Positions 7,536 to 8,569 of a stretch of 8,569 bases of DNA are shown here, in pieces; the stretch's first letter is position 1; every line of letters starts with the position of its first letter. The position numbers were made by a program, and so were the translations under genes. The notes below the pieces were generated by a model. It saw nothing but the letters and a program-made list of their open reading frames with translations. It was not told the DNA's origin and did no database searches. This DNA comes from a virus (lineage: Monodnaviria; Loebvirae; Hofneiviricota; Faserviricetes; Tubulavirales; Inoviridae): the IMG/VR virus record IMGVR_UViG_2617270947_000002; one strand, 5' to 3'.

Positions 7536-8569
7536 TCACTTACTACCGTATTCTCGGCTTAACCGTCCATGCAACCTCAACACATTGCTTTCAACTGCCG
7601 TCACCACGTTCTCCGGAAAATCTGTCGGTAATGAAGTCTTCACGTTATCCAGTGCTGCTGGAATCATTCTGGCAAAGTCACTCAGGATTTCATGCATCTG
7701 CACTTCCGGGAATCTCAGCACCTTTGCTGTCGCCAAAAAATGTCGCGGATAAATTTTATCGATTGCCGTTTTTTTGCCTTTGGATGCGTTAAGCCCCATT
7801 GCCAGTTTGAGATCGCTGATGTGTATTCCCGTACCGCCAAGGACCGGAAATGCTGAAATGATGTCGTAAAATGGCGTGAGTCGATAACTGCCGCCAGCCT
7901 GAATAAATACGGAGAAGTTTTTTGCATGACCGTCCGTTGCGCCAATCAACCACTGGAAGACCTGGAATTTCATAAAATCATAGCGATCTTTCAGCGCCTC
8001 GCTGGACCCCATCAAAAAAGCCATGATCCGCGCGATGCCTGGGCCTCCATCTGATTCATATTTCACCGATGAAGGTAAACCGAATGTCTGACACATATCC
8101 TCCTGTGGCAAGCGAAGTAAAACCGTTCGCTCAGCATTCCAACGCCTGTCAAAACGTTCGACCGCTAACGCGCGCACATTTCCCGCTTTAATGATTTCTG
8201 CGTCCGGAACATTCAACCCAAGTTCTTTCGCCAGCAGCAGACAGTAATACTCATTATCAACGCTTTGGCTGAGATCGAGCGTCGCATTGGGCTGCCTGAT
8301 TTCGCCAATCGGTAATTTAATGATGTGCGTCGTCGGCGTTATTCCTTTCGGAATGCACCAGTCATTGCCTATTCTGAGCAGTGCTGTCTTCTCCTGTGCG
8401 CCAGCAACCGAGATGCGAAAGTCATTTTCTTCTCTAATCATGCCTAGCGGGATATCTGCTTTATGCTTGCTAACCACTCCGGTGCATACTTAAAGGTGTG
8501 CGCGCCGTTGGCTAACTTCGTTAACTCGCCTACCCGCTGGTTGTTCATCCAAGTGACAAGTTTAGGCAT
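7536..8569 (-). pseudogene. hipA: hipA (HipA serine/threonine kinase toxin of the HipBA module), apparently disrupted by an internal deletion of about 289 bp with frameshift
   Basis: Window ends at the hipA ATG: minus-strand translation gives MPKLVTWMNNQRVGELTKLANGAHTFKYAPEWLAS, then IKQISR and a stop. A different frame carries KADIPLGMIREENDF..REYGSK (313-aa ORF 7536-8477), matching the HipA C-terminal part from about residue 133. The gene span is 1034 bp vs about 1323 bp expected for 440-aa HipA. Confidence 0.75.

Follow-up and report, generated by a model that had tools for sequence, protein, structure and literature searches.

In Escherichia coli K-12 the hipBA module contains hipA (b1507) and hipB (b1508). 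HipB is a repressor/antitoxin that represses its own expression, and HipA is a toxin kinase that phosphorylates GltX and causes growth arrest. The Pfam domains of K-12 HipA are Couple_hipA (residues 6-103) and HipA_C (residues 149-401). The first ~100 residues of HipA, named N-subdomain-1, form a lid on the core kinase, mediate HipA dimerisation and carry high-persister mutations (PMC8262856, PMC6581861). The hipBST loci of E. coli O127:H6 and Legionella pneumophila contain hipB, a short ORF corresponding to the HipA N-terminus and an ORF encoding a lidless kinase (PMC6581861, PMC10627512). HipS is a folded antitoxin domain of ~103 aa (PMC6581861), and HipT is translated from signals of its own and has a mini-domain at its N-terminus (PMC10627512); the HipT core is reported to begin near residue 42, and its Ser57 is equivalent to Ser150 of HipA (PMC10627512). 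A further described system concerns filamentous phages rather than toxins: the UPΦ group of Enterobacterales prophages contains elements related to IKe and I2-2 (Virus Evol 2020, PMC7307601), which are integrated in the dif site, of which just the first 15 nt recur at one end (PMC7307601), and show three reverse-oriented accessory ORFs adjoining dif (PMC7307601).

The window, which is the whole stretch of 8,569 nt that was analysed, shows hipA in the same locus and orientation as wild-type K-12 hipBA and contains the following features:

1-7444: most of a filamentous (Inovirus-type) prophage integrated at dif, assigned from its ORFs and from near-identical annotated prophages
7433-7459, minus strand: hybrid dif-like chromosome/prophage junction, GGTGCGCATAATGTA followed by CGACTCGTTATG
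7536-8569, minus strand: hipA, with the ATG at 8569 and the TGA stop at 7536-7538, placed by K-12 alignment
7536-8464, minus strand: 3' part of hipA (nt 395-1323), identical to K-12
8464-8465, minus strand: deletion junction, where hipA nt 105 (window 8465) is joined to nt 395 (window 8464)
8444-8569, minus strand: 5' hipA remnant, defined from the ORF list, K-12 alignment, translation and Pfam

A global alignment with hipA of K-12 MG1655 (NC_000913.3 1590854-1592176, b1507) shows 0 mismatches from the ATG through the stop to the dif core, and the sole difference is one 289-bp gap covering hipA nt 106-394, which corresponds to HipA residues 36-131 and the first base of codon 132. Compared with wild-type K-12 hipBA, the retained bases and the hipA-dif spacer are identical, whereas 289 bp are missing, no 440-aa HipA is encoded and the lid is cut to 35 residues. 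A preliminary description of the window had placed the loss at codons 36-132, about 289 bp; this is essentially exact against K-12 hipA for both the position and the length of the deletion. The proviso that the reference gene might have the same sequence across the junction falls away, since K-12 hipA contains the 289 bases. The junction, between window positions 8465 and 8464, reads …GTTAGCAAGC followed by ATAAAGCAG…, and its placement is unambiguous because zero bases are common to both sides. None of the 16-mers of the deleted 289 bp was found elsewhere in the window or in six carrier contigs.

The ORF that starts at the native ATG has 41 codons, 35 of them native (MPKLV…EWLAS) and six out-of-frame (IKQISR), and ends at a TAG in window 8444-8446, while HipA residues 133-440 are encoded in a frame other than that of the ATG at 8569. 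An early stop with the remainder of HipA in another frame was also what the preliminary description had reported, and the ORF list, the translation and the alignment bear it out. The ORF of the 3' part has two versions: the mechanical one extends over 7536-8477, with a GTG start and 313 aa, and that of the gene callers extends over 7536-8441, with an ATG corresponding to HipA M140 and 301 aa. The ATG of the 301-aa ORF begins 2 nt past the upstream TAG (TAG GC ATG).

No single uninterrupted HipA ORF of ~440 aa is present in the window. The N-terminal Couple_hipA domain, of ~100 residues, keeps 35 in-frame residues: the 41-aa ORF retains only positions 3-38 of the 99 in the Pfam profile, compared with 3-98 in K-12 HipA, and the ~100-aa N-subdomain-1 lid of a functional HipA is incomplete by Pfam. 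The second ORF (7536-8477) shows a complete HipA_C (profile 1-211 of 213) that includes the Gly-rich loop/Ser150 region. This ORF is 100% identical to K-12 HipA residues 133-440, yet out of frame with the start codon, and the kinase remnant aligns at residues 140-440 of the PDB HipA chains; the HipA_C kinase domain of a functional HipA is present, though out of frame. Shine-Dalgarno pairing is -2.4 kcal/mol for the ATG at 8441, with 1-nt spacing, and -2.6 kcal/mol for the GTG at 8477, versus -6.0 kcal/mol for the native hipA start, and neither restart codon of the kinase ORF is predicted to have a usable Shine-Dalgarno. A scan of 7300-8569 revealed no sigma-70-like promoter able to drive the remnant, and an Rfam scan of the window gave no matches.

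Taken together, the locus very probably contains a naturally occurring hipA null allele in a K-12-like background, whose deletion is independent of the neighbouring prophage. As read from the sequence, the deletion strips most of the lid and the linker and throws the kinase out of frame. A single 289-bp event would have taken two-thirds of the lid (N-subdomain-1, Couple_hipA) together with the following linker and shifted the frame; ribosomes starting at the native ATG would then halt after 41 codons, and the kinase domain, intact as DNA, would remain out of frame and lack its own ribosome-binding site. Full-length HipA cannot be made from this sequence, since the frame is shifted and the kinase is left out of frame without a ribosome-binding site. 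The hipBA module would be reduced to the HipB repressor/antitoxin and a dead toxin gene and, following the established biology of the module, HipB alone would stay as an autorepressor, while HipA-dependent GltX phosphorylation and growth arrest would be lost. The earlier statement that the toxin is inactivated is supported insofar as full-length HipA is impossible and the kinase domain lies out of frame, and toxin activity is almost certainly lost. The phenotype is probably mild or neutral, like that of laboratory ΔhipA strains.

The survey of E. coli genomes proposed in the preliminary description was run with a 46-bp query centred on the junction, which was found in none of 5,426 complete RefSeq E. 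coli genomes (0/5,426), and by exact protein look-up in NCBI, ENA and Logan, which gave the exact 41-aa product on 36 contigs. The junction-spanning 32-mer (GGAGTGGTTAGCAAGCATAAAGCAGATATCCC) shows no match among the GTDB representative genomes, and one metagenome contig, equal in length to the ENA contig L005, matches it. All of the eight contigs inspected (L005-L012) contain the junction, which is also present in L015, L016 and L022. The inspected carriers span two NCBI draft genomes (GCA_003980375.1 and GCA_029997295.1), SPAdes-style and metagenome scaffolds from ENA, and no fewer than four SRA runs assembled by Logan (SRR28897143, SRR35907794, SRR32119855 and SRR1186483); searching the literature for the accessions of these assemblies and runs gave no hit. 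Across the 10 kb upstream of hipA, the eight carriers show 0-7 SNPs between them, 2-6 SNPs versus MG1655 and 0 indels, and they are not copies of one assembly because the SNPs differ between their flanks. The hipB gene lies outside the window, which ends at the hipA ATG; in 8/8 contigs that carry the deletion, hipB and the 358 nt preceding it match K-12 exactly, which suggests that hipB is intact. From these distributions, the deletion is strongly argued to be a genuine lineage-restricted allele in a K-12-like genomic background.

The carriers also show differences and common features outside the junction. Three of them (L006, L008 and L009) have a T-to-C change at the equivalent of window 7550, which gives the non-synonymous Y437H in the disrupted hipA remnant, and these Y437H carriers are a sub-lineage of the deletion carriers. 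In the eight contigs (L005-L012, locus 4091-9512), the upstream ECSE_1600-family autotransporter is called as two products, of 1,325 and 466 aa. This region is colinear with the K-12 yneO pseudogene and shows no indels, a colinearity that supports the K-12-like background of the carriers.

An assembly or sequencing artefact in the source genome would account for a junction that none of the 5,426 complete RefSeq E. coli genomes and no GTDB species representative contains, but such an origin is extremely improbable. Different pipelines and submitters give the same junction with differing flanking SNPs, the junction occurs both with and without the prophage, and it shows no repeat that could collapse an assembly. 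The preliminary description had admitted an artefact as a possible refutation, and the recurrence of the junction in NCBI, ENA and Logan assemblies argues against that route. The same description had located hipA immediately beside a prophage integration site. The location is true, since the chromosome/phage boundary lies inside dif, 77-91 nt past the hipA stop; the adjacency, by contrast, is coincidental and not causal. A deletion produced as a by-product of filamentous-phage integration or excision at dif, by Xer-mediated or phage-induced rearrangement, would agree with a hybrid dif site only 77 nt from the end of hipA and with the prophage junction that is also present in 6/8 examined carriers. 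However, 1,005 nt of DNA identical to K-12 separate the nearer breakpoint from the hybrid dif (8464 to 7459), and the breakpoints show no dif-like sequence. Moreover, L005/L016 combines the deletion with a native dif and lacks the prophage, and intact hipA genes are flanked by a 99.9% identical prophage in LSN03-016011/A and by a related tandem filamentous prophage in KFu015. An origin from the phage is very hard to credit because of the 1,005-nt K-12 gap, the prophage-free L005/L016 and the intact hipA beside prophages; the deletion is judged independent of the prophage, and in most carriers both simply co-travel in one lineage.

The remaining alternative accepts the deletion and concerns its product. 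Ribosomes stopping at the TAG of the 41-codon ORF could re-initiate 2 nt further on and produce HipA 140-440, a lidless core kinase, comparable to HipT, that might act as an altered toxin. The stop and start are arranged as TAG-GC-ATG, and the second ORF contains a complete HipA_C with the Ser150/Gly-rich loop region and aligns to PDB HipA 140-440. The 301-aa ORF is free of stops and frameshifts in every inspected carrier, and natural HipT proteins without the ~100-aa N-subdomain-1 are active toxins by themselves (PMC8262856, PMC6581861). By offset from HipT, the HipA core should start near residue 135. Nevertheless, this product is unlikely. The start shows no Shine-Dalgarno (-2.4 kcal/mol with 1-nt spacing versus -6.0 kcal/mol for the native start), and possible re-initiation at this ATG, 2 nt after the TAG, is the sole translation route of the kinase ORF. 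The product would begin just 10 residues ahead of Ser150 and would have nothing equivalent to the N-terminal 41-residue mini-domain of HipT. The 35-residue lid stub cannot serve as a HipS-like antitoxin, and selection should act against an active kinase that is not neutralised, yet several diverged isolates have the allele. The carriers are too close to K-12 for an intact ORF to signal purifying selection, and one sub-lineage has the non-synonymous Y437H. The single-sequence AlphaFold2 model of the 301-aa remnant, with a mean pLDDT of 34, is uninformative, and literature searches found no direct test of an experimentally N-terminally truncated HipA.

The allele is similar to hipBST in its order of hipB (seen in the carrier contigs), a short ORF for the HipA N-terminus and a lidless kinase ORF; the differences lie in both ORFs. 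HipS is a complete domain, whereas the upstream ORF here has 41 aa, 35 of them native, and does not encode a complete N-subdomain-1 fold of HipS size. The HipA remnant has neither the translation signals nor the mini-domain of HipT. It is K-12 HipA and not a hipT orthologue: PDB HipT chains match it with E = 1e-7 to 6e-4 over a partial domain, and orthology to HipT (clade III Hip kinases, with TrpS as target) is contradicted by a sequence identical to K-12 HipA. That an accidental two-ORF allele makes lidless HipA 140-440 at low level by termination-reinitiation is, on this analysis, decidedly improbable. If it did, the allele and the independent lesions that keep the 301-aa ORF would be a living analogue of the split of hipA into hipS and hipT, and the lidless kinase might change persistence behaviour.

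Returning to the null allele, the sequence around its breakpoints bears on how the deletion arose. Spontaneous deletions in E. coli include a recognised class in which palindromic or quasi-palindromic stems join the endpoints. In the reference, a perfect 9-bp inverted repeat touches both breakpoints, AAGCCGTTA at nt 102-110 and TAACGGCTT at nt 386-394, and its left arm survives in the window as AAGC alone (8465-8468). An inverted repeat of at least 9 bp touching both breakpoints was found in 7 of 20,000 random breakpoint pairs (P ~3.5e-4), which had the same spacing and were drawn from E. coli sequence around the hipA locus; the repeat itself was noticed post hoc. The junction shows no direct-repeat microhomology. 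Help from a hairpin or cruciform is suggested because the 9-bp inverted repeat is present at both breakpoints and direct-repeat microhomology is absent, and a hairpin- or cruciform-assisted illegitimate recombination would have produced the 289-bp deletion; an illegitimate event of this type is probably the mechanism. Simple replication slippage was rejected, since the junction is without direct-repeat microhomology. Plain bypass at the base of the hairpin was also rejected as a complete explanation: it predicts the loss of nt 102-394, and what is missing is nt 106-394. Folded as ssDNA, the region has no unusual stability (z = -1.13).

The hipA locus is disrupted in other E. coli as well. When full-length K-12 hipA was used as the query against 5,426 complete E. 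coli genomes, some hipA DNA was present in 5,243/5,426, and at least 80% of hipA was present in one place in 4,849/5,426; at least ~10% of the complete genomes lack a full-length hipA locus. In O157:H7, hipA is a 5'-truncated pseudogene and hipB is absent; UPEC 536 shows an in-frame internal hipA deletion of ~450 bp; and an IS903B insertion is another natural hipA lesion among the complete genomes. Further lesions were located by searching for the 301-aa C-terminal product. These leave the 301-aa ORF in place. In three of them the change is small: 2 bp are lost at nt 376, 1 bp is lost at nt 345 and 1 bp is gained at nt 379. Another is a premature stop without an indel, which gives a 126-aa N-terminal fragment, and an inversion and a separate 290-bp deletion also belong here. 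The apparent clustering of these lesions upstream of codon 140 reflects how this search ascertained them and is not evidence of selection. The protein cluster of the 41-aa fragment contains dozens more HipA N-terminal stubs of 30-51 aa, from E. coli and Shigella, and some of these stubs are on >100 contigs. The other E. coli lesions are similar to the 289-bp allele in that the same locus is disrupted, several keep the 301-aa ORF and hipB is kept in several inspected cases; they differ in their breakpoints, and the 289-bp allele is tied to a 9-bp inverted repeat instead of microhomology.

The independent 290-bp hipA deletion (nt 82-371), close in size and position to the 289-bp one and with a 2-nt AG microhomology, is present in L021 (logan SRR35745621_10, locus 2874-3906), which shows a native dif, no prophage and, in contrast to the 289-bp carriers, an intact upstream autotransporter gene of 1,806 aa. 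In L024 (GCA_036681045.1, a 4.37-Mb contig, locus 3001-6374), an inversion has apparently divided hipA: one strand carries the 301-aa 3' part, the other carries hipB with a Couple_hipA fragment of 159 aa, ~1.7 kb away, and fimbrial genes separate the two hipA parts.

Judged by its sequence, the 289-bp allele is one more case of frequent hipA decay, an ordinary lineage-restricted null allele. Its importance is modest, as a natural hipA-null allele with an apparently intact hipB in a K-12-like background, and it is further evidence that wild E. coli can dispense with the classic persistence toxin and often lose it. Carrier isolates could act as natural controls in studies of HipA-dependent persistence, and the breakpoints, with their inverted repeat, offer a small and clean instance of structure-associated deletion. 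For annotation, both ORFs should be labelled as one hipA pseudogene, and not as a 'HipA N-terminal domain protein' and a 'HipA family toxin'.

The prophage (1-7444) contains the core gene set of an inovirus related to IKe and I2-2: genes encoding the secretin (pIV), a Zot-like pI, a DUF5455 protein, the attachment protein pIII, the major coat protein (pVIII), the ssDNA-binding protein (pV) and the pII replication protein, as well as three plus-strand accessory ORFs adjoining dif. Its gene I shows 73-75% nucleotide identity to those of IKe and I2-2. Identity to K-12 stops at 7445 and phage DNA begins at 7444; the 15 nt of 7445-7459 are chromosomal dif, namely its XerC arm and the first bases of its central region. 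In L006, L007 and L004, the far end of the prophage restores a perfect 28-bp dif (position 19566 in L006 and L007), and the element lies between a 15-nt partial repeat and a full dif, as expected from integration at dif. In its relation to IKe and I2-2, its partial dif repeat and its reverse-oriented accessory ORFs, the prophage resembles, at the level of sequence and gene order, the UPΦ group of dif-integrating Enterobacterales filamentous prophages, with no notable difference between the two.

The hybrid site shows the XerC arm and TGTA, then CGACTCG, and then TTATGTTGAAA, which resembles the XerD arm (TTATGTTAAAT) and is located 11 nt from the XerC arm, instead of 6. The accessory ORFs (window 6001-7353) are on the plus strand, opposite to the phage core genes: one encodes a 150-aa HTH regulator (phrog_3557), another encodes a 140-aa protein that belongs to phrog_4174, with no Pfam match and no function assigned, and the 110-aa ORF has neither a Pfam nor a PHROG match. 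Among related prophages, L004 (LSN03-016011/A, 10001-11229) contains a ~776-bp duplication comprising another copy of the regulator gene together with a fragment of pII, and L003 (KFu015, 1-10000) contains a tandem array of related phage with a gene encoding a death-on-curing (Doc) family toxin adjoining dif. On the phage side of the hybrid dif, a 72-bp stretch (window 7365-7436) shows a GC-rich hairpin (AAAGAGGCCGCTGCG…CGCAGCGGCCTTTT) and matches ~480 sites on E. coli plasmids, with ~93% identity. In one inspected plasmid, this stretch is located directly after a gene of the STM4504/CBY_0614 family, and some related prophages have such a gene among their accessory genes.
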